Source of the DNA: an uncultured bacterium
GTDB taxonomy: Bacteria; Babelota; Babeliae; Babelales; Vermiphilaceae
Assembly (NCBI GenBank): GCA_963701085.1
Contig: OY969561.1
Span: forward strand, 1,088,001 to 1,152,000
DNA: 64,000 bases
Reading direction: 5' to 3'
Position 1 is the stretch's first letter. Every line of letters starts with the position of its first letter. The notes beneath the pieces are model-generated. The model did no database searches, was not told the DNA's origin, and saw only the letters and a list, made by a program, of their open reading frames with translations. A program made the position numbers and the translations under genes. Shown piece by piece: positions 1-15,245 of the stretch.

Positions 1-104
1 TTCGACAGGCTCACCACGAACGGGTTTTTAAGAATTCAATTTCCCGTTCGCACTGCCTGTCCTTCGTAGCTTTAGCGAAGTAGGGAGCTTGTCGAAGTGA
101 GCGA
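1..104. repeat. Family-A inverted pair (truncated at window edge) with a 30-nt family-B unit (56-85) nested in the right arm
   Basis: ttcgacaggctcaccacgaacggg (1-24) is an imperfect inverse of cccgttcgcactg|agcttgtcgaag once 56-85 is removed. Confidence 0.8.
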
Positions 105-128
105 ATGGGAATAAGAAGGGAAAATATA

Positions 129-1130
129 ATGAATAAAAATGGAATTATAAATAATTCAACGGTAGATCCAAATAAAATTTTGCCAATGAGATATCCATGG
201 GCGCGTCAGCATTATAAAGATGGCGTTGCAAATAATTGGACGCCAGAAGAAGTATCAATGCAGCATGATGTTGAGCAATGGAAATCATCTACGGTTTTAA
301 CACCATCAGAACGCCGCTTGATTTTATGGAATCTTGGTTTCTTTTCAACGGCTGAATCGTTGACAGCAAATAATTTGGTGTTGACCGTGTATAAACACGT
401 AACCAATCCAGAATGCCGTCAATATCTATTGCGTCAGGCGTATGAAGAAGCGGTTCATACTGATACATTTATTTATTGTTGTGATTCATTGGGGTTAGAT
501 CCAGATGAAATATACAAGATGTATGAAACGGTACCTTCTATTAAAGCAAAAGATGATTTTGTGGTTGGTTTAACAAAATCAATTTTTGATCCAAATTTTA
601 CCACTGATACCACGGCAAACATTCAACGTTTTTTGCATGATTTAATTGGTTTTTACGTGATCATGGAAGGTATTTTCTTTTATGCGGGATTTGCAATGAT
701 GCTTGCATTAAAACGTCAAAATAAAATGATTGGTGTTGGTGAGCAGTTTGAATATATTATGCGTGATGAAAGTCTTCATCTTGCATTTGGTTGTGATTTG
801 ATCAACGTGATAAAATCAGAAAACCCTGAAGTGTGGACAGAGTCATTCCAACAAGAAATTGTTGAGTTGATTAAACAAGCAGTTGTGTTGGAAAAGGTTT
901 ATGCGCATGATGCGTGCCCACAAGGAATGTTTGGTATTAATGCTGAGCAGTTTGCTGAATATGTTGAGCATATAACGGATCGTCGCTTAGAGCGGATTGA
1001 TTTGCCAAAAATATATGGCACTAAAAATCCATTCCCATGGATGTCTCAATCAACTGATTTGAGCAAAGAAAAGAACTTTTTTGAATCACGTGTTACGGAG
1101 TATCAGACAGCTGGTTCATTGGAGTGGTAA
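129..1130 (+). CDS. nrdB: Ribonucleotide reductase beta subunit, class Ic (Mn/Fe) type
   Basis: FFSTAESL, EEAVHTDTF, EGIFFY, RDESLH and NFFE..VTEY motifs; ATG 129 preceded by agaaggga. Confidence 0.95.
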   Translation: MNKNGIINNSTVDPNKILPMRYPWARQHYKDGVANNWTPEEVSMQHDVEQWKSSTVLTPSERRLILWNLGFFSTAESLTANNLVLTVYKHVTNPECRQYLLRQAYEEAVHTDTFIYCCDSLGLDPDEIYKMYETVPSIKAKDDFVVGLTKSIFDPNFTTDTTANIQRFLHDLIGFYVIMEGIFFYAGFAMMLALKRQNKMIGVGEQFEYIMRDESLHLAFGCDLINVIKSENPEVWTESFQQEIVELIKQAVVLEKVYAHDACPQGMFGINAEQFAEYVEHITDRRLERIDLPKIYGTKNPFPWMSQSTDLSKEKNFFESRVTEYQTAGSLEW

Positions 1131-1152
1131 AAGTAGCATAGCTATGAATGAA

Positions 1153-1203
1153 CCTGTCCTTCGTCCTTCGACAAGCTCAGGATGAGCGGAGAGCGAAGTA
1201 GGA
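1153..1203. repeat. Family-B hairpin with a family-A arm (1165-1190) nested in its loop
   Basis: cctgtccttcgt[ccttcgacaagctcaggatgagcgga]gagcgaagtagga. Confidence 0.8.
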
Positions 1204-1305
1204 TTAATGTAGGGAGAAGAATAAAAAAATTCTTCTCCTTTTTTTTGTCAAAATAGTTATGTATAGTGCTTGTGAGATTTGTTTTTTTACATAAAGGAGT
1301 TTGGC

Positions 1306-1557
1306 ATGGAAAAGAAAATAGTTGTTGTAGCATCTCTTTTGTTGTGTGTAGTCGCATTACAGGGTATGAATACTAGTAAAAAAGTTGTTATTAAGGATAG
1401 CAAAGATTTTGACAAAATTGTTCGTGCACGCGATATGTATAAAAAGAGTAATAATATTGGTATGAGTGATGTAACAAGAGGTAATAAAATTAATTGCGAT
1501 CCTATTCAATCTTCAGATACAAAGAAGCAAGACGCTACAAAAACAGAAGAAATATAA
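1306..1557 (+). CDS. Small secreted hypothetical protein
   Basis: aaggag RBS; signal peptide ending LQG|MN. Confidence 0.7.
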   Translation: MEKKIVVVASLLLCVVALQGMNTSKKVVIKDSKDFDKIVRARDMYKKSNNIGMSDVTRGNKINCDPIQSSDTKKQDATKTEEI

Positions 1558-1583
1558 AAATGTAATAAAGAGAGGAGTGAGTT

Positions 1584-2684
1584 ATGTTGAAAAAAATAAC
1601 GAACTGTTCATTACTGATATTATCATTCTTATTCATGGCGCATGGCATGAATCATGCCGCTCAATTTCTTAAATCACCTGAGGTTCAGGAGTTGGAAAAT
1701 GTTGTTGGTCAAGCTGTTAGTAATTCTGCAGTGCAGGATGAAGCGAAAAATATTTTTAATGAAATTACTCACAACACATCGAGTATATCAACGACTACTA
1801 CAACGACCACTAATTCAACTTTGCCTACAGTACCGAGTATATTAATTAATGGTCAAGAGGAGTCTAAAAAGAGTCCAGTACCTAATTTGGATTTAGGTTC
1901 CTTTTTGTCTCCCACGAGAGCTACGAGCACCTCAATACCAAAAACACCGATTCATAACGCTAGGCAACTATCACACAATGTTGCAAATGCAAAAAGAGCA
2001 CAAACAGAGCGTAGTGCACGGGCAAGTAGCAATGGAGGCTCTCAGGATGTTGTTATTAACATGGCCAATATGCCAAAAAGAAATATGTTATCTCAATCAT
2101 CACCTCCCATTCAAGATAATGCTTTAATAGATGATTTGGCAGCAATGGAGAAAAAATATTTACCTAACGAGGTATGGGGATTTGTAGCTAAAGCGAATCC
2201 TGTTCTTCACAAATTTGCACAAGATCATAATTTATCTTTGGATGATTTTTTGATGTTTGCTGATTTGAAAAATCAATTTGATGTTTCTCCGCAGGCTGTT
2301 GTTGATCAGATAAAAAATAAATTGCCTGATGATAAAAAAATAGCTGATTGGAAGCAACGTGAAAAGTATGAGAAGATAAAAAAAAATAATCCGGACAAAT
2401 ATGAAGAAATAATTTTGGAAATTTTTAAAGATGTTCTTGATCAACAAGATGGTCAAGGTAAGCCATCAGCGTTTGCTGATACGCATATTGATTTGTTAGA
2501 AGGGCAGGTTGCTGAAGATCAGAACACTAAGCGTAATTTATGGATAGCGGTGGCTGTTAAAGCAGTAATGCTTGTTGCGGGCCTTGCGGGAACTTTAGCC
2601 TGGGGTGCTTATGGTCAAGCGCATACACCGAGCACTGCACCGACTCATGCTCCAACTTTCGCTCCTACTTTTGCTCCAGTATAA
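1584..2684 (+). CDS. Secreted hypothetical protein with S/T-rich region, C-terminal TM helix and APT(H/F) repeats
   Basis: 366-aa ORF, gaggag RBS, signal peptide, hydrophobic C-terminal segment. Confidence 0.8.
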   Translation: MLKKITNCSLLILSFLFMAHGMNHAAQFLKSPEVQELENVVGQAVSNSAVQDEAKNIFNEITHNTSSISTTTTTTTNSTLPTVPSILINGQEESKKSPVPNLDLGSFLSPTRATSTSIPKTPIHNARQLSHNVANAKRAQTERSARASSNGGSQDVVINMANMPKRNMLSQSSPPIQDNALIDDLAAMEKKYLPNEVWGFVAKANPVLHKFAQDHNLSLDDFLMFADLKNQFDVSPQAVVDQIKNKLPDDKKIADWKQREKYEKIKKNNPDKYEEIILEIFKDVLDQQDGQGKPSAFADTHIDLLEGQVAEDQNTKRNLWIAVAVKAVMLVAGLAGTLAWGAYGQAHTPSTAPTHAPTFAPTFAPV

Positions 2685-3116
2685 TTATCTATATACTTTG
2701 TTGATCAATGTTGTGAGAGCTTTTTCCGTTAATGGGCCGCCATCATAGCGGCCTATTTCTTTGCCGTTGCGTAAAAATATGAGCGTTGGAATGCTGGTGA
2801 TTTTGAAATCAGCCGATAGATCTAAGAAAAAGTCGCGATTTATTTTAATGAACCTGATATTTGGCATTACTCCTGCAACGGTTTCAACGATTGGCGATAG
2901 CCGTCTGCATGGTCCACACCAATCAGCATAAAATTGGAGAATTACGTTGCCAGTGCTGCTGAATGATTTGAGATGTGTTTGTGAAGAACCGGCTGTTTTT
3001 TTCTGGTCATGTAAATAAAAGATGTTGGTTATGGGGTTGTTGTTATTGCAAAAGAGTAAACAGGTGAATATAGGTGCTAGTAAAAGCATGACTATGAGTA
3101 AGCGTTTGTTTTTCAT
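2685..3116 (-). CDS. Thioredoxin with N-terminal signal/anchor
   Basis: FYADWCGPC and SIPTLIF motifs. Confidence 0.9.
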   Translation of the reverse strand: MKNKRLLIVMLLLAPIFTCLLFCNNNNPITNIFYLHDQKKTAGSSQTHLKSFSSTGNVILQFYADWCGPCRRLSPIVETVAGVMPNIRFIKINRDFFLDLSADFKITSIPTLIFLRNGKEIGRYDGGPLTEKALTTLINKVYR

Positions 3117-3299
3117 AATATTCTCATTATTTAATGTATGTGTCCTTATTATTAGCGTATATTTATTTTCTATTTTCGCAAATGGGGTCTCAAAAAGCCT
3201 TGTTAATGCTGTTTTTATGGGAAAATGGCTGTATACTGAGGGTATATAGGGATTTTTGGGGGGTTAAAAAGTTCCATTTCTTGTTAAATGTTCTTTCCT

Positions 3300-3693
3300 C
3301 GCGCTCGTCCTGAGTTTGTCGAAGGATATCTTCGAGCGCAGTATTAAGAGTTAAATATGCAAAATTACTTTTATCTGTATATTTTAAAATGTGTTAATGG
3401 TGCCTATTATGTAGGGCATACAGATAATATTGAACAGCGTCTGTCAGAGCATCATTTGGGTGTAATTAGTAATTGTTATACAAAAAATAAAAGACCTTTA
3501 GAGCTTGTGTTCCTACAGGATTTTCCTACAAGGGATGCTGCATTTCATGCAGAGCGCCAAGTTAAAGGATGGTCTCGTAAGAAAAAAGAAGCATTGATGA
3601 GAAGCGATTGGGAAGAAATAAGACAATTAAATGTTTTACATAAGAAACAAAGATCGCTCGAGGATATCCTTCGACAAACTCAGGACGAGCGCG
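3300..3693 (+). mobile_element. GIY-YIG cassette 1 bounded by inverted family-A repeats
   Basis: 3300-3338 and 3655-3693 are inverted repeats matching at 38/39 nt. Confidence 0.8.
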
Positions 3694-3704
3694 GGGAAGA
3701 ATAG
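3357..3704 (+). CDS. Small GIY-YIG endonuclease (UPF0213-like), copy 1; C-terminus reads through the right repeat
   Basis: YLYILKC..GAYYVGHT..R..EH, YTK..RP and AERQVKGWSRKKKEAL motifs. Confidence 0.92.
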   Translation: MQNYFYLYILKCVNGAYYVGHTDNIEQRLSEHHLGVISNCYTKNKRPLELVFLQDFPTRDAAFHAERQVKGWSRKKKEALMRSDWEEIRQLNVLHKKQRSLEDILRQTQDERGEE

Positions 3705-3742
3705 GATTTGTTTGTTGAAGAATTAGAATAATATGGAAAAGT

Positions 3743-4405
3743 ATGAATAAGCATGATAAAGCGGCATTAATAGAGCAATTGCTCGCGTATGTGACGGATA
3801 ATAAGCGTGAAAAAATGCAGGCAGTGCTTGTAAACCGCACTCGTTATATTACCGTTATCTTGGAAGATCTCTTTCAGCCGCACAATGCGAGTGCTGCATT
3901 GCGTACCTGTGATATTTTTGGAGTTCAGGATGTTCATGTGGTGGAGGCAAAACATACTTTTAAAGCAATTCCAACCATTGCTATGGGATCATCAAAATGG
4001 GTTGATGTGTATTCTTATTCATTAATCACCGATTCAATTACTGAGCTGAAAAAGCAGGGGTATCGAATAGTTGCAACAACACCACATACTGATTGTTACG
4101 AGCTACCAAATTTGCCACTTGATCAAAAAACAGCACTTGTTTTTGGTAGTGAACAAACCGGGTTATCGGAGGCTGCTTTAGCCCAGGCTGATACGTTTGT
4201 TAAAATACCCATGTATGGCTTTGTGGAAAGTTTTAATGTATCTGTGAGCGTTGCTCTTTGTTTGTATGATGTTATTAATAGATTACATCGTTCATCATAT
4301 GTATGGCAGCTTTCTGAGGACGAAAAGCACGATATCATGCTTGCATGGATTCGTAGGATATCTCAAACGGCAGCATTGCTTGAAAAAGCAGAAAAATTGG
4401 ATTAA
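3743..4405 (+). CDS. trmH: SpoU-family tRNA G18 2'-O-methyltransferase
   Basis: PHNASAALRTCD, FGSEQTG and IPMYGFVESFNVSVS motifs. Confidence 0.9.
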   Translation: MNKHDKAALIEQLLAYVTDNKREKMQAVLVNRTRYITVILEDLFQPHNASAALRTCDIFGVQDVHVVEAKHTFKAIPTIAMGSSKWVDVYSYSLITDSITELKKQGYRIVATTPHTDCYELPNLPLDQKTALVFGSEQTGLSEAALAQADTFVKIPMYGFVESFNVSVSVALCLYDVINRLHRSSYVWQLSEDEKHDIMLAWIRRISQTAALLEKAEKLD

Positions 4406-4422
4406 AAAAATTGGATTAAAAA

Positions 4423-4450
4423 AAAAGAGGAGCTGAAATGCTCCTCTTTT
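4423..4450. terminator. Bidirectional intrinsic terminator
   Basis: aaaagaggagc-tgaaat-gctcctctttt between convergent genes. Confidence 0.8.
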
Positions 4451-4473
4451 AAATTCTTATAAATAACTAAAAT

Positions 4474-4872
4474 TTAGTTACTGTCTGTTGCATATTCGTC
4501 ATCGCCAAAGATATCTTCATCAGCGTTAACATCTTGCGCATTGTATGCTTGTTGTAATTGGTACGCTGCATATGCTGCTGCAACTAATACCATAGTGCGA
4601 CCAATGTAATTGTTGTTAACATATGCTTGAAAATTTCCACCTTGTAGGTAGCTAATTTTTGTAAGTTGATTTAAAAATAAAGGATTAACAGCCCAGTTAA
4701 CGATTAAGTCTGTTGCGTCAACAGTGTATTTTGCTGCGAAAGCAAAAGGAGCTTTTGCTAAGTTAATTACTTCCGAAAAAAAATTAGATTGAGTTGAAGT
4801 TGTGTTATCCATAGAAAACACAGAAGAAGCTGTAAATAAAACTGAGAGTAATGCAATACGTGATATGTTCAT
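4474..4872 (-). CDS. Secreted hypothetical protein with acidic tail
   Basis: Signal peptide VFS|MD; 132 aa. Confidence 0.75.
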   Translation of the reverse strand: MNISRIALLSVLFTASSVFSMDNTTSTQSNFFSEVINLAKAPFAFAAKYTVDATDLIVNWAVNPLFLNQLTKISYLQGGNFQAYVNNNYIGRTMVLVAAAYAAYQLQQAYNAQDVNADEDIFGDDEYATDSN

Positions 4873-5015
4873 AGAGAGTCCTTCAGTATAGAGATTATAA
4901 TTGATGACACTGTTTTATACTTCATTGTGAAGTATCTTGACCTAAATCGTATCCGGAAAACGGCTTTGTGTCAACGGGGGGTAAAAAGGGAAAGAGGGTA
5001 TGGCTATAACCTTGT

Positions 5016-5436: not shown

Positions 5437-5550
5437 ATGAGCAGTAGATTTGCTAAGGATTTAAAGGCATCGCTTAAAGAAGCTATTGCCTATGAGAAAG
5501 CTGGCCTGCCAGCCGTAGCTTTACGCGAAATAAATAATTTTGATTTTTAG
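5437..5550 (+). pseudogene. Probable N-terminal remnant of an HTH antitoxin-like gene, ending in a family-B repeat
   Basis: ggag RBS; MSSRFAKDLKASLKEAIAYEK then repeat-derived codons and TAG. Confidence 0.5.
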
Positions 5551-5671
5551 TCTGCCCGCCGTCGCTAAAGCTATGGCGGACAGCTTTCGCCATTTATTGT
5601 AAGTATTTTTTTTGAATTTGTATCCAACCTTTAAAAAAGCTGGCTTGCCAGCCGTAGCTTTACGCGAAGGC

Positions 5672-5674: not shown

Positions 5675-5748
<74 letters not shown>

Positions 5749-11811: not shown

Positions 11812-14092
11812 AATTGAATCCTTACAAGGAGTTGTTGATCGCGTTATTTATCAAAATCAAGAAAATGGCTTTGCTGTTTTTGTTATCCAACTGAACGCAA
11901 AAAATAGTGTTACTGTCAAAGGATGTGTGCCGACAATTACTGCTGGCGAACAGGTATTGGTGAGCGGCGTTTGGAATATGCATCAAAAATTTGGCAAACA
12001 GTTTGATGCGCAATCATGTGAAAAGCAGGCGCCGACTTCTATTCTTGGTCTTAAAAAATATTTGGGTTCGGGGCTTATCAAAGGTATTGGTCCGGTTTAT
12101 GGTGATAAGCTGGTAGCAGCTTTTGGTGAAAAAGTTCTTGAAGTTATTGATCAACATCCTGAGCGTCTTATGTCTGTTCCCGGTATTGGTGCTAAGCGTG
12201 TTGAAAAAATTGTCACTGCCTGGAAAGATCAAAAAGAGATTTCCAACATCATGGTTTTTTTGCAAAATAAAGGAATTTCTTCTACCTATGCAGTAAAAAT
12301 TTATAAGCAGTACAAAGAAAACGCTATTGCTATTATTGAGGAAAATCCATATCGCCTTGCACAAGATATGTGGGGTATTGGTTTTAAGACTGCTGATCAG
12401 ATAGCGCAAAAAAGTGGTATTGCTCCTGATTGTAAGCGACGCATTGTGGCAGCAATTTTACATGTTATTCAGACAACATCGAGTGATGGTAATTTGTATA
12501 TACAGCTCGAATTGCTTAAAAAAGAGATGGCAGAGTTGCTTGAGTTGGAACTTGAAGGCATTCAGCATACAACAAAATGTGCGCTGCATGATCTGTATAA
12601 TGCTGATAAAATAAAATTATTAACGCATAACGATATTCATTATATTACGTTGCCTTCATTTTATTTTTCTGAAAAAGGTATTGCGCATAAAATTGATAAA
12701 ATGGTCACATCGGCACCACATCATACATTTGATTTGGAGAAAATAAAAAAAAATTTATGGAATGATTCCTGTTTAAATCATTCTTCCCGCGCTCGTCCTG
12801 AACCTGTTGAAGGATGTCCCCGAGCGCTCGAAGAAACCCTTCAACAAGTTCAGGGCGAGCGCAAGGAGATGCATAACAATGGTATTGCCCTTAATGAACA
12901 GCAGCAGGAAGGTGTGCTCGCCTGTTTGCAGCACAAAGTTACTATTATTACTGGTGGCCCGGGAACGGGTAAAACAACACTTATTAAAAAATTATTAATG
13001 CTGCTTGATCTACAACGAGTTAAATATGCACTTGCAGCCCCAACAGGAAGAGCGGCAAAACGTATTACGGAAGGCACAGGAAGGCCCGCTTCTACTATTC
13101 ATCGGTTGCTTGATTTTGATGTAAGTACCATGTCTTTTAGATACAATGAATCCCATCCTCTTGCGGTTGATTATCTGATTGTTGATGAAGCATCGATGAT
13201 TGATGTGTTTCTTGCGAACGCATTGATTAAAGCATTGCCAGCATCGGCACATCTTGTGTTGATTGGTGATATTGATCAGTTGCCATCAGTTGGTGCGGGT
13301 AATTTTTTACATGATATGATTGCGAGTAAAAAAATTGCCACCATAAGTCTTAAGCATATATTTAGGCAAGCGCAAGATAGCCTTATTATTATTAATGCCC
13401 ATCGTATTAACAATGGAGAATTCCCAACGACGGAACATGAAAATTCGCGCAAAGATTTTATTTTTATTAAAGAAGATAATCCAGAAAATATACCAATGCA
13501 TTTGGAAGCTATTTATAGTAAAGCATTACGTCATTATGGCATCCACAAAGATGATACAATTGTACTCACACCGATGCATCGTGGCGTTGCAGGAACACAA
13601 AAATTAAATCATGATTTGCAACAGCTGTTGAATGGTAATAATGGTGGACCGGCTGTTGGGTATGCAGGAGCGCAGTTTCAGGTTGGTGATCGAGTGATGC
13701 AGCTGCGTAATAATTATGATAAAAATGTGTTTAATGGTGATATTGGGGTTATTGAAAGCATTAATGCAGAAGATAAAATAGTGCACGTACGTTTTTTTGA
13801 AAATATTGTTGATTATGAAACATCAGATCTTAATGAATTGGTGCATGCGTATGCAATTTCTATTCATAAAAGCCAAGGATCTGAATTTTCTGCCGTTATT
13901 ATTCCGGTTTTTATGCAGCATTTTATGATGCTGCAACGAAATTTACTGTATACCGCCGTTACGCGTGCAAAAAAATTATGTATAATCATAGGGCAATCGC
14001 GTGCTATTGCAATGGGAATAAAAAATAATAAAAGCAGCGAGCGTATTACGTTTTTACAACAATTTTTGACAACAGATTTAGCATGCCGATAA
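11804..14092 (+). CDS. recD2: RecD2-like ATP-dependent helicase with in-frame repeat insertion
   Basis: GIGP HhH, GGPGTGKT, APTGRAAKR, DEASM, HKSQGSEF motifs. Confidence 0.95.
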   Translation: MPEIESLQGVVDRVIYQNQENGFAVFVIQLNAKNSVTVKGCVPTITAGEQVLVSGVWNMHQKFGKQFDAQSCEKQAPTSILGLKKYLGSGLIKGIGPVYGDKLVAAFGEKVLEVIDQHPERLMSVPGIGAKRVEKIVTAWKDQKEISNIMVFLQNKGISSTYAVKIYKQYKENAIAIIEENPYRLAQDMWGIGFKTADQIAQKSGIAPDCKRRIVAAILHVIQTTSSDGNLYIQLELLKKEMAELLELELEGIQHTTKCALHDLYNADKIKLLTHNDIHYITLPSFYFSEKGIAHKIDKMVTSAPHHTFDLEKIKKNLWNDSCLNHSSRARPEPVEGCPRALEETLQQVQGERKEMHNNGIALNEQQQEGVLACLQHKVTIITGGPGTGKTTLIKKLLMLLDLQRVKYALAAPTGRAAKRITEGTGRPASTIHRLLDFDVSTMSFRYNESHPLAVDYLIVDEASMIDVFLANALIKALPASAHLVLIGDIDQLPSVGAGNFLHDMIASKKIATISLKHIFRQAQDSLIIINAHRINNGEFPTTEHENSRKDFIFIKEDNPENIPMHLEAIYSKALRHYGIHKDDTIVLTPMHRGVAGTQKLNHDLQQLLNGNNGGPAVGYAGAQFQVGDRVMQLRNNYDKNVFNGDIGVIESINAEDKIVHVRFFENIVDYETSDLNELVHAYAISIHKSQGSEFSAVIIPVFMQHFMMLQRNLLYTAVTRAKKLCIIIGQSRAIAMGIKNNKSSERITFLQQFLTTDLACR
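12788..12862. repeat. Empty family-A doublet read in-frame within recD2
   Basis: Two inverted arms fused at cgagcgctcg; encodes RARPEPVEGCPRALEETLQQVQGER. Confidence 0.9.
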
Positions 14093-14748: not shown

Positions 14749-14814
14749 GCGATCAGATCTTTTTTGTAAAGAGTGAATATAATAATATGGTATCTATCAA
14801 AGTAGATTATGTCC

Positions 14815-15222
14815 TTCCCGCGCTCGTCCTGAACTTGTTGAAGGATGTCCTAGAGCGCTCTTAATAGAGATAATAAATATGCAAAATCATTTTTACATGT
14901 ACATTTTAAAATGCATAAATGGTGCATATTATGTTGGACATACAGATAATATTGATAAAAGAATGTCCGAACATAATTTAGGTTTAATTAGTGGTTGTTA
15001 TACTAAAAATAAATGGCCCCTAGAGCTTGTGTGTCTTGAAGTTTTTTCAACGAGAGATGATGCATTTCATGCGGAGAGACAAGTTAAAGGTTGGTCGCGC
15101 AAGAAAAAAGAAGCTTTTATACAAAATGATTGGGACAAAATTAAAAAACTTAATTTTTTACAAAAATAATGATGGGGAGCGCTCGAGGACATCCTTCAAC
15201 AAGTTCAGGACGAGCGCGGGAA
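14815..15222 (+). mobile_element. GIY-YIG cassette 2 bounded by inverted family-A repeats
   Basis: 14815-14860 and 15177-15222 are inverted repeats matching at 45/46 nt. Confidence 0.85.
14879..15169 (+). CDS. Small GIY-YIG endonuclease, copy 2
   Basis: About 74% identical to 3357-3704 over 96 aa (counted by eye). Confidence 0.92.
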   Translation: MQNHFYMYILKCINGAYYVGHTDNIDKRMSEHNLGLISGCYTKNKWPLELVCLEVFSTRDDAFHAERQVKGWSRKKKEAFIQNDWDKIKKLNFLQK

Positions 15223-15245
15223 AGCAAGAATAATTTGAGGTAACC

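Follow-up and report, generated by a model that had tools for sequence, protein, structure and literature searches.

Introduction

Ssn nucleases are single-domain GIY-YIG enzymes of about 94 amino acids (Chenal et al., 2025, Nat Commun, PMC11893778). Here we describe two cassettes of about 410 nucleotides which resemble Ssn loci, each with a short open reading frame (ORF) for a predicted GIY-YIG nuclease between inverted hairpin arms. They lie in a stretch of 64,000 nucleotides, called the window in the following (positions 1,088,001 to 1,152,000 of contig OY969561.1, assembly GCA_963701085.1), from an uncultured bacterium of the Vermiphilaceae (Babelota). The window is part of the single contig of 1.2 Mb with 37% G+C that makes up the host genome.

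According to PMC11893778, Ssn binds the hairpin repeat flanking its gene (NTS, generalised as SRM) only as single-stranded DNA (ssDNA) and cuts a few nucleotides upstream. The SRM motif is found on both sides of 42% of the Ssn homologues, and the residues Y6, Y17 and E64 of the Neisseria enzyme were mutated. The NTS-ssnA-NTS arrangement is likened by the authors to an insertion sequence and to pairs of repetitive extragenic palindromic (REP) repeats and transposases, and REP systems are named in their Discussion. They expect co-evolving hairpin-nuclease pairs and raise movement as a unit for Ssn as a hypothesis only. UPF0213, cd10456 and COG2827 are not mentioned in this text. In a literature search on GIY-YIG proteins with hairpin or inverted repeats and on the arm motifs the study was the sole relevant work, and in the literature found no hairpin association of UPF0213 proteins was on record.

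A preliminary description of the window had reported that the two arms of each cassette vary together and had explained this by homogenisation within a cassette or by co-evolution with the nuclease. In the present analysis the cassettes are compared with their paralogs, with related genomes and with the Ssn system.

Results

Anatomy of the cassettes and their predicted nucleases

Cassette A spans positions 3293-3700 of the window and cassette B positions 14812-15225. The left end of cassette A (3293..3339, plus strand) starts with a pyrimidine leader (3293-3300), which is followed by a hairpin arm with the sequence GCGCTC-GTCC-TGAG[TTTGT]CGAA-GGAT...GAGCGC (3301-3339). The right end (3654..3700, minus strand) is inverted relative to the left one and consists of a hairpin arm (3654-3692) and a leader (3693-3700). 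The predicted nuclease gene A (3357..3704, plus strand) encodes 115 amino acids, of which the final ~19 are encoded by the right arm. In cassette B the left end (14812..14858, plus strand) is formed by a leader and the arm GCGCTC-GTCC-TGAA[CTTGT]TGAA-GGAT...GAGCGC, the predicted nuclease gene B (14879..15169, plus strand) encodes 96 amino acids, and the right end (15179..15225, minus strand) again consists of a hairpin arm and a leader. The 20-mer TGAGTTTGTCGAAGGATATC is present exactly at 3311-3330 (plus strand) and 3663-3682 (minus strand) in cassette A and the 20-mer TGAACTTGTTGAAGGATGTC at 14830-14849 (plus strand) and 15188-15207 (minus strand) in cassette B, whereas 0.01 exact 20-mer matches are expected in shuffled sequences. 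These matches confirm that, as stated in the preliminary description, four differences separate the arms of A from those of B, and both arms of a cassette share the variant at each of these positions. The name "second cassette" used there for positions 3300-3704 is wrong, as this interval holds the arms which the same text assigns to cassette 1 (here A).

The stop codon that terminates gene B is lost in gene A, leading to readthrough of the right arm and the addition of ~19 residues (window 3645-3704). Open frames exceeding the length of the GIY-YIG domain were also seen in many homologues from related genomes.

The proteins A and B are identical in 71 of 96 residues with 87 of 96 positives, which agrees with the identity of ~74% and the mostly conservative changes given earlier. 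Both match the Pfam family GIY-YIG (PF01541) with 64.2 and 66.9 bits, respectively, at a cut-off of 22.6. The proteins of 96-115 amino acids contain this single Pfam domain at residues 5-77, and ~20 residues follow the catalytic domain. Neither another Pfam family above its cut-off nor a transposase domain was found in the A and B proteins, and a scan against NCBIfam gave no family above its cut-off. By sequence the closest solved structures are the UPF0213 proteins 1zg2 (BH0048, E 1.5e-13) and 1ywl (EF2693, E 3.9e-11), with ~80 residues aligned. The predicted GIY-YIG fold is settled by these Pfam and PDB sequence matches.

A tblastn and Pfam search of the genome yielded four close paralogs, all of which were recovered by the family search: A (genome position 1091357) and B (1102879) in the window, C (231646) and D (339431, minus strand). 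Inverted arms flank all four. Y8, Y18, R28 and E66 are invariant across the paralogs, and we take them to be the catalytic tyrosines of the GIY and YIG motifs, the arginine and the metal-binding glutamate, respectively. The paralogs differ by a synonymous divergence (dS) of about 1.3, and the ratio of non-synonymous to synonymous divergence (dN/dS), whose computation had been proposed in the preliminary description, is 0.10-0.13. The paralogs are thus old, and purifying selection acts on them.

A fifth small GIY-YIG ORF of ~79 amino acids (genome 843882-844097, minus strand; L005) is of another subtype and reaches 21.5 bits to the family profile. It is flanked on both sides by a different hairpin repeat (GTCCTyC..AGCTTTAGCGAAGGA..), which stands in the same orientation and is not inverted, and two tRNA-like stretches lie directly upstream of the ORF. 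A long ORF containing GIY-YIG was also recovered in the genome search.

Relation to Ssn

For comparison with Ssn the protein P0085 was used, which is a proxy and not the N. meningitidis SsnA; its gene (L162) lies in a metagenome-assembled genome (MAG) of the Gammaproteobacteria and has exact NTS flanks. The small GIY-YIG genes of N. lactamica and N. mucosa (L158, L160) were rejected as reference because they are UPF0213-like and not NTS-flanked; in the N. lactamica locus no NTS match was found.

Like Ssn, the cassettes consist of a gene for a single-domain GIY-YIG protein of ~95 amino acids with inverted hairpin repeats on both sides, with the upstream hairpin reading in sense on the coding strand and the downstream hairpin on the opposite strand, as checked on the NTS-flanked L162. 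In addition, in both systems the same hairpin is dispersed in many genomic copies and also brackets other genes. The cassette proteins thus fall within the size range of the Ssn family (single-domain, about 90-150 amino acids), and their hairpin is repeated in the genome and inverted on both sides of the gene (136 arms, 38 doublets, 4 of 4 cassettes; see below). However, the cassette hairpin contains a tandem G.A core as well as a second outer stem, both of which are absent from NTS. In the following, the family of the cassette proteins is referred to as the GA-hairpin family.

The published SRM motif had no match in the 1.2-Mb genome (0-2 in simulated genomes), and in the GA-hairpin family it was found at 0 of 30 related loci and at 1 of 27 loci from Pseudomonadota. 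As a positive control, it was recovered at 120 of 120 NTS loci among the matches listed and on both sides of the P0085 gene. By the flanking SRM motif the cassettes do not belong to Ssn. Homology to Ssn is defined in PMC11893778 by a BLASTP match to N. meningitidis SsnA with E < 1e-10 and 75% cover, and the best CDD match expected of the family is cd10448 (GIY-YIG_unchar_3). The cassette protein and P0085 share 31% identity over 83 amino acids (pairwise E 2e-9, 27-30 bits), and a match at the level of P0085 would fall short of 1e-10 in a proteome search. The two tyrosines are spaced by 10 residues in the cassette paralogs and by 11 in the Ssn-type P0085. PADLOC matched no defence-system model to the paralog proteins or to P0085.

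The exact 28-nucleotide NTS consensus of Neisseria was seen in at least 120 stretches (L037-L156) on contigs labelled from many phyla, which include Dehalococcoidia, Planctomycetes, Nitrospirae, Gemmatimonadetes and Verrucomicrobia.

The MAG of P0085 also encodes a protein (L157) which is 51% identical to the cassette protein (E 3e-33) and whose flanks are GA-type hairpins. Both families therefore coexist in one MAG, each with its own hairpin. Members of the GA-hairpin family reach at least 81.7 bits to their own profile and at most 41 bits to P0085, and Ssn-type ORFs reach 120 bits or more to P0085 and no more than 44 bits to the GA-hairpin family profile. Scores are distributed bimodally, with no intermediate values between the two families (61 and 22 ORF rows, with different places among the matches listed). 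In a reciprocal flank test of 57 loci of the GA-hairpin family, the GA-hairpin was present on both sides of 28 and on at least one side of 45, and SRM on both sides or at least one side of none. For 20 loci of the Ssn type, the GA-hairpin was present on both sides of none and on at least one side of 1, and SRM on both sides of 4 and on at least one side of 11. The pairing of protein and hairpin is thus family-specific across two phyla. Among 401 sampled Pseudomonadota genomes the Ssn type occurs in 92 (E <= 1e-15), a tally that takes in G647, which is flagged unpublished and on which no other claim rests.

UPF0213 proteins such as 1zg2 and 1ywl have the same size and the single GIY-YIG domain, and the solved ones are nearer to the cassette protein (E 1.5e-13) than to P0085 (E 0.007). 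However, UPF0213-like ORFs score only 28-42 bits to the GA-hairpin family profile. We regard the cassettes as a real and probably mobile system of nuclease/hairpin units of the Ssn kind, which form a second class of protein and hairpin as set apart via the proxy P0085. This kind of system is known since 2025; the published motif misses the GA-hairpin variant, and the published homology criteria would probably miss it as well.

Each arm is a hairpin of its own

Searching the genome with a degenerate 16-nucleotide core yielded 160 arm-like sites. The 136 arms that were kept have an upstream GCTC, GTTC or GCTT, and the 24 sites that were dropped belong mostly to a second hairpin class, with a few chance matches. 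Five proposed stem pairs are formed in 677 of 680 cells of the 136 arms, compared to 35-78% when the partner is slid by 1-2 places; as the arm copies share ancestry, these counts are not independent events. Three of the pairs vary in type (TA 85/CG 48; CG 125/TA 8/AT 2/GC 1; AT 103/GC 32), and the tandem G.A/A.G within the stem is invariant in all 136 arms. Clearly, each arm is its own hairpin with compensatory pairs. Folding of single arms as DNA gave an outer GCGCTC/GAGCGC stem and an inner stem. A T/C-rich leader of ~8 nucleotides precedes the hairpin (-18 to -10), and beyond it the composition is that of the background. This pairing within each arm is the strongest constraint on the element and was missed in the preliminary description.

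Sites of the second hairpin class (..GTTTACTmCTGAGCyTGyCGAAG..TCAGGryGAGCGC) occur genome-wide, often beside arms of the main family (e.g., 210521, 461285, 865620 and 1156141), and form composite ends on both sides of the related cassettes L011 and L031.

Besides the cassettes, the arms form gene-less doublets, of which 38 in the genome are arranged tail to tail and 1 head to head. Mixed-type doublets recur as whole units in 5, 4, 4 and 3 copies. Four gene-less doublets, all tail to tail, lie in the window. The one at 12789..12862 has arms of different types (GTCC..GGATGTC and GCCC..GGGTTTC), and another is found at 50987..51061. The doublet at 52641..52714 is of a recurrent mixed type with a GCCC/GAACTTGTTG arm and a GTCC/GAGCCTGTCG arm, and in the doublet at 63693..63766 the right-arm stem GGTC..GACT is compensated within the arm and unmatched to the left arm. 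According to the preliminary description most empty doublets of the window carry arms of the cassette-2 type (here B). This holds for the loop, GAAC(T/C)TGTTG in 7 of 8 window arms with GAGCCTGTCG in the remaining one; the arm tails vary. Solo arms of the same family are located at 1158..1189 (minus strand, ATCC-TGAG[CTTGT]CGAA-GGAC) and at 56824..56855 (minus strand, with the stem variant ATTC..GAAT).

It could also be argued that the left arm pairs with the right one, either in the transcript or as ssDNA, giving one long stem which encloses the gene and serves processing or translational control. Inverted arms are complementary in one strand by construction, and the best fold of the doublets in the energy model is indeed one long hairpin (-27 and -32 kcal/mol, z -7 and -9.5). 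However, where the arms differ the pairing within the arm is kept and the pairing between the arms is lost. In the related cassette L025 the left GTGG..CCAT faces the right GTCC..GGAT, a compensatory stem swap, and in L014, L021, L023 and L027 each arm has a self-complementary inner hairpin that is unrelated to that of the other arm. The same is seen in the window doublet at 63693 (TCC..GGA vs. GTC..GAC). In addition, the two arms of empty doublets are not more alike than expected by chance (see below), and Rfam gave nothing at the arms, its sole match in the window being a tRNA at 5675-5748. We therefore regard this stem as very improbable. Pairing within each arm is the conserved constraint, and likeness between the arms is frequent but optional.

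Matching of the two arms

The similarity of the arms was counted as differences over 32 nucleotides for all 9180 pairs of the 136 genomic arms, which differ by 6.4 on average; 7.0% of the pairs are within 1. Between the left and the right arm there are 1, 0 and 0 differences in cassettes A, B and C, respectively, and the long-loop arms of cassette D differ by 1 nucleotide. None of the 134 other arms is within 1 of either A arm, and the variant loop GAGTTTGTCG is restricted to the arms of cassette A (2 of 160 arm-like sites). The arms of a cassette are thus far more alike than random genomic copies, and on this comparison the preliminary description had made its reading depend. As the paralogs are old, this identity is not simply the result of recent copying of whole cassettes.

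In the 38 gene-less tail-to-tail doublets the left and right arms differ by 5.47 on average, compared to 5.58 in random pairings of the same arms, which shows no left-right likeness beyond chance. Only 2 of the 38 are within 1, and 36 have unlike arms. Most doublets are therefore not simple internal deletions of the present cassettes. When convergent arms are spaced by 300-5000 nucleotides, 5 of 10 pairs are within 1 mismatch, versus 1 of 31 in other orientations.

Two spaced arm pairs enclose other genes. At genome 305915-308698 (L185) matched tail-to-tail arms surround an L21-like gene and an ORF of 613 amino acids. At genome 1154801-1156104 (L186) identical tail-to-tail arms, of a type unique in the genome, surround a protein of 367 amino acids with a hydrophobic N-terminal stretch and an HEMTH motif, for which no Pfam match was found.

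Insertion and movement

The flanking genes of cassette A are both present in 8 congeners, all of which lack the cassette between them (6 sites were read); the gap is 354-476 nucleotides shorter in 7 of these 8. Cassette B is missing from the same site in 9 of 9 congeners (5 sites read). No hairpin element is present at site A in G254 and G249 or between the flanking genes of site B in G257, G253 and G255; some congeners bear other hairpin pairs at these spots. In two congeners, the cassettes most closely related to C are found at unrelated sites and show 82-85% identity only over positions ~1440-1841 of the locus. This block of homology comprises leader, arm, gene, arm and leader, and the flanks are unrelated. 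In one of these relatives both arms read GGATCAA where C has GGATTAA. Judged from these genome comparisons, the cassettes are insertions that moved as units. That the arms behave as ends of one unit, in line with the functional ends expected in the preliminary description, is borne out by the homology to congener cassettes, which stops at the outer arm edges, and by the same sites without cassettes in congeners.

Other inserts were also seen at site A. In G252 (L175) the site matching window ~3250-3740 carries an unrelated insert of ~0.9 kb with terminal inverted repeats of ~60 nucleotides (..GATTAATGCCCAATA..), and in G253 and G251 different hairpin pairs are present, so this intergenic spot appears to have been colonised repeatedly.

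Short hairpin repeats dispersed in intergenic regions, often as inverted doublets that spread as units, are known as REP sequences, bacterial interspersed mosaic elements (BIME) or REPIN, and are associated with the REP-associated tyrosine transposases (RAYT) of the HUH Y1 type. As in REP/RAYT systems, repeats also flank the gene whose protein is presumed to act on them, and different paralogs pair with different repeat variants in one genome. The cassette protein is, however, by its only Pfam match a GIY-YIG hydrolytic nuclease and not an HUH transposase. Since it would act by hydrolysis and not through the HUH tyrosine, covalent strand-transfer chemistry is not expected. Insertion sequences and miniature inverted-repeat transposable elements share with the cassettes the terminal inverted repeats around one gene, the many short gene-less derivatives, the insertion polymorphism between related genomes and the homology ending at the repeats. 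Here, in contrast, no known transposase family was found with Pfam, no target-site duplication was recognised (a weak test), and both ends of a cassette are structured hairpins themselves.

GIY-YIG homing endonucleases are a known kind of invading gene product, and it is conceivable that the ORF alone invades the centre of resident doublets by cutting and repair, the arms being co-converted halves of the target. A cassette resembles a doublet with ~320 nucleotides inserted centrally, GAGCGCTC is present at both inner junctions of cassette B, and in one empty doublet (genome 981967-982022) both arms are of the exact B type over 32 nucleotides. We consider such homing unlikely. At the sites in congeners named above there is often no doublet, which means that arms and gene probably arrived together, although an earlier doublet stage may have existed. 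In addition, the homology between related cassettes covers the whole arms and the leader, and doublets are mostly unlike-armed whereas cassettes are like-armed. The protein also has no DNA-binding domain or extension beyond the catalytic domain and, unlike I-TevI-like homing endonucleases, scores only 16.5 bits to TIGR01453, the NCBIfam model for group I intron endonucleases (cut-off 56.05).

Relatives in the phylum and in Pseudomonadota

Of 261 genomes from the phylum, 111 contain proteins detected with the family profile at E <= 1e-10, often with 2-5 copies per genome, and about 79 of 261 (~30%) have a best E near 1e-20 or better. From the phylum 33 cassettes were compared (30 fetched loci and A, B and D). 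With a strict finder, a common framework was recognised which consists of a 4-nucleotide stem, xGAr, a loop, yGAz and the complementary 4-nucleotide stem; as the loop, some arms have a pentaloop and others a long variable hairpin. The framework is present on both sides of 23 cassettes, on one side of 8 and on neither side of 2; the strict finder misses arms with a single stem mismatch that are seen in local alignments (e.g., L015, L022, L026). Among the 23 two-armed cassettes, 12 have identical arm cores and 4 differ by 1-2 nucleotides.

In the 401 sampled Pseudomonadota genomes the protein type of the GA-hairpin family was found in 21 (E <= 1e-20). At 27 loci of this family from Pseudomonadota the framework was present on both sides of 7 and on one side of 10, compared to 0 and 3 of 27 control stretches, respectively.

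Further hairpin repeats of related families lie at window positions 1-110 and 1142-1200, and short GC-rich palindromes (..CTGCCCGCCGTCGCTAAAGCTATGGCGGACAG.. and ..GGCTTGCCAGCCGTAGCTTTACGCGAAGGCTGG..) at 5500-5660 adjoin the tRNA at 5675-5748.

Discussion

With a probability of roughly 0.6 we regard the cassette as a small selfish or semi-domesticated unit, in which a GIY-YIG gene of ~96 amino acids is bracketed by the hairpin that its nuclease recognises. By analogy with Ssn, the nuclease would bind the hairpin in single-stranded DNA. The recognised structure would comprise the outer stem GCGCTC/GAGCGC, an inner stem of 3-4 pairs, a T-A pair, the tandem G.A/A.G and an R-Y pair, with a pentaloop or a long variable hairpin on top. 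The Ssn precedent and the tail-to-tail geometry suggest a nick directly 5' of the hairpin, in the pyrimidine-rich leader, and because the hairpins stand tail to tail both presumed nick sites would be at the outer edges. Arm-gene-arm, or the gene-less doublet of two arms, would then be excised or copied as the unit. Gene-less doublets and solo arms may be non-autonomous relatives, which spread as units and presumably rely on functions provided in trans.

The likeness of the two arms could have two reasons. Both arms must fit the same nuclease, and spaced inverted arms may be repeatedly copied from one another (concerted evolution). The adjacent arms of doublets would not be copied in this way, and selection may act against a long perfect palindrome.

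Several points weigh against a mobile nuclease unit of this kind. The edges of A and B gave no recognisable target-site duplication; the empty sites there are too diverged for base-by-base alignment. The contigs of X1-X4 contain short exact pieces across the junctions of cassette A and no joined or excised form, which is uninformative on mobility; the public DNA runs contain at most 0.32 of the sampled words. A mechanism acting on ssDNA at the replication fork might predict a strand bias, and the solo arms, related to the replichores by GC skew, show no bias to the leading or lagging strand (34:26). A hydrolytic GIY-YIG nuclease alone cannot rejoin DNA, so that the movement step would need host functions, and we infer both the nuclease activity and the mechanism of mobility. 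The matching of arms is also not universal, since 7 of the 23 two-armed phylum cassettes have clearly different arms, and 2 of the 5 matched spaced pairs enclose ordinary non-nuclease genes. Matching is thus not tied to the nuclease alone. Finally, the loop label (short or long) changes 6 times on the protein tree versus 9.65 times when shuffled, a value equalled in 1% of 5000 shuffles (30 labelled tips, 3 dropped; the labels of L020 and L036 are from doubtful finder matches). Arm class and protein tree thus agree only loosely.

For the preliminary description this means that its observation is confirmed and its interpretation partly supported. Homogenised or co-evolving arms agree with the four cassettes of the genome, which are all far above random, and do not extend to the dissimilar arms elsewhere in the phylum. 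The contrast to the doublets and the matched arms at other genes fit better with copying between spaced arms than with co-evolution with the nuclease alone.

Alternatively, the cassettes could belong to a domesticated host system, as was proposed for SsnA of Neisseria. Dispersed hairpins would mark loci at which the nuclease trims ssDNA and thereby limits recombination or incoming DNA; the arms flanking the gene would be local repeats, possibly autoregulatory, and nothing would be mobile today. Such a role agrees with N. meningitidis, where Ssn restricts transforming ssDNA at NTS repeats (PMC11893778), and with arms that also bracket ordinary genes, such as those for the L21-like and 613-amino-acid proteins and the protein of 367 amino acids. 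In addition, the genes are under purifying selection and homologues are kept in about 79 of 261 phylum genomes at E ~1e-20 or better. However, A and B are lineage-specific insertions, the relatives of C are found at unrelated sites with homology ending at the arms, and mixed-type doublets are found repeatedly as complete units. Four diverged paralogs in a genome of 1.2 Mb are also hard to explain by one host function. A purely domesticated system is therefore a minority possibility in our view, though it and mobility do not exclude each other. Like the left-right stem and homing, it fits the data less well than the mobile nuclease/hairpin unit, or only in part.

More tentatively, the cassettes may represent an undescribed class of autonomous mobile elements. 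Its sole gene would encode a GIY-YIG ssDNA nuclease of 96 amino acids from a clade distinct from Ssn, its ends would be tandem-G.A hairpins, and REPIN-like doublets would be its passengers; the class would be ancient and widespread, with one hairpin framework shared between the phyla. We hold this stronger claim to be somewhat doubtful. If it is true, the enzymes would be a second, orthogonal set of programmable ssDNA cutters. Site-specific ssDNA nucleases are wanted as tools, and a family that recognises its target in a different way would enlarge the choice.

Together with its hairpin of different structure, which the published motif misses, the second protein clade makes the phenomenon broader than reported. 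The comparison of related genomes gives direct comparative evidence that arm, gene and arm move as a unit. With four diverged nuclease/hairpin pairs, this genome of 1.2 Mb would be a natural experiment on the specificity and co-evolution of nuclease and hairpin.

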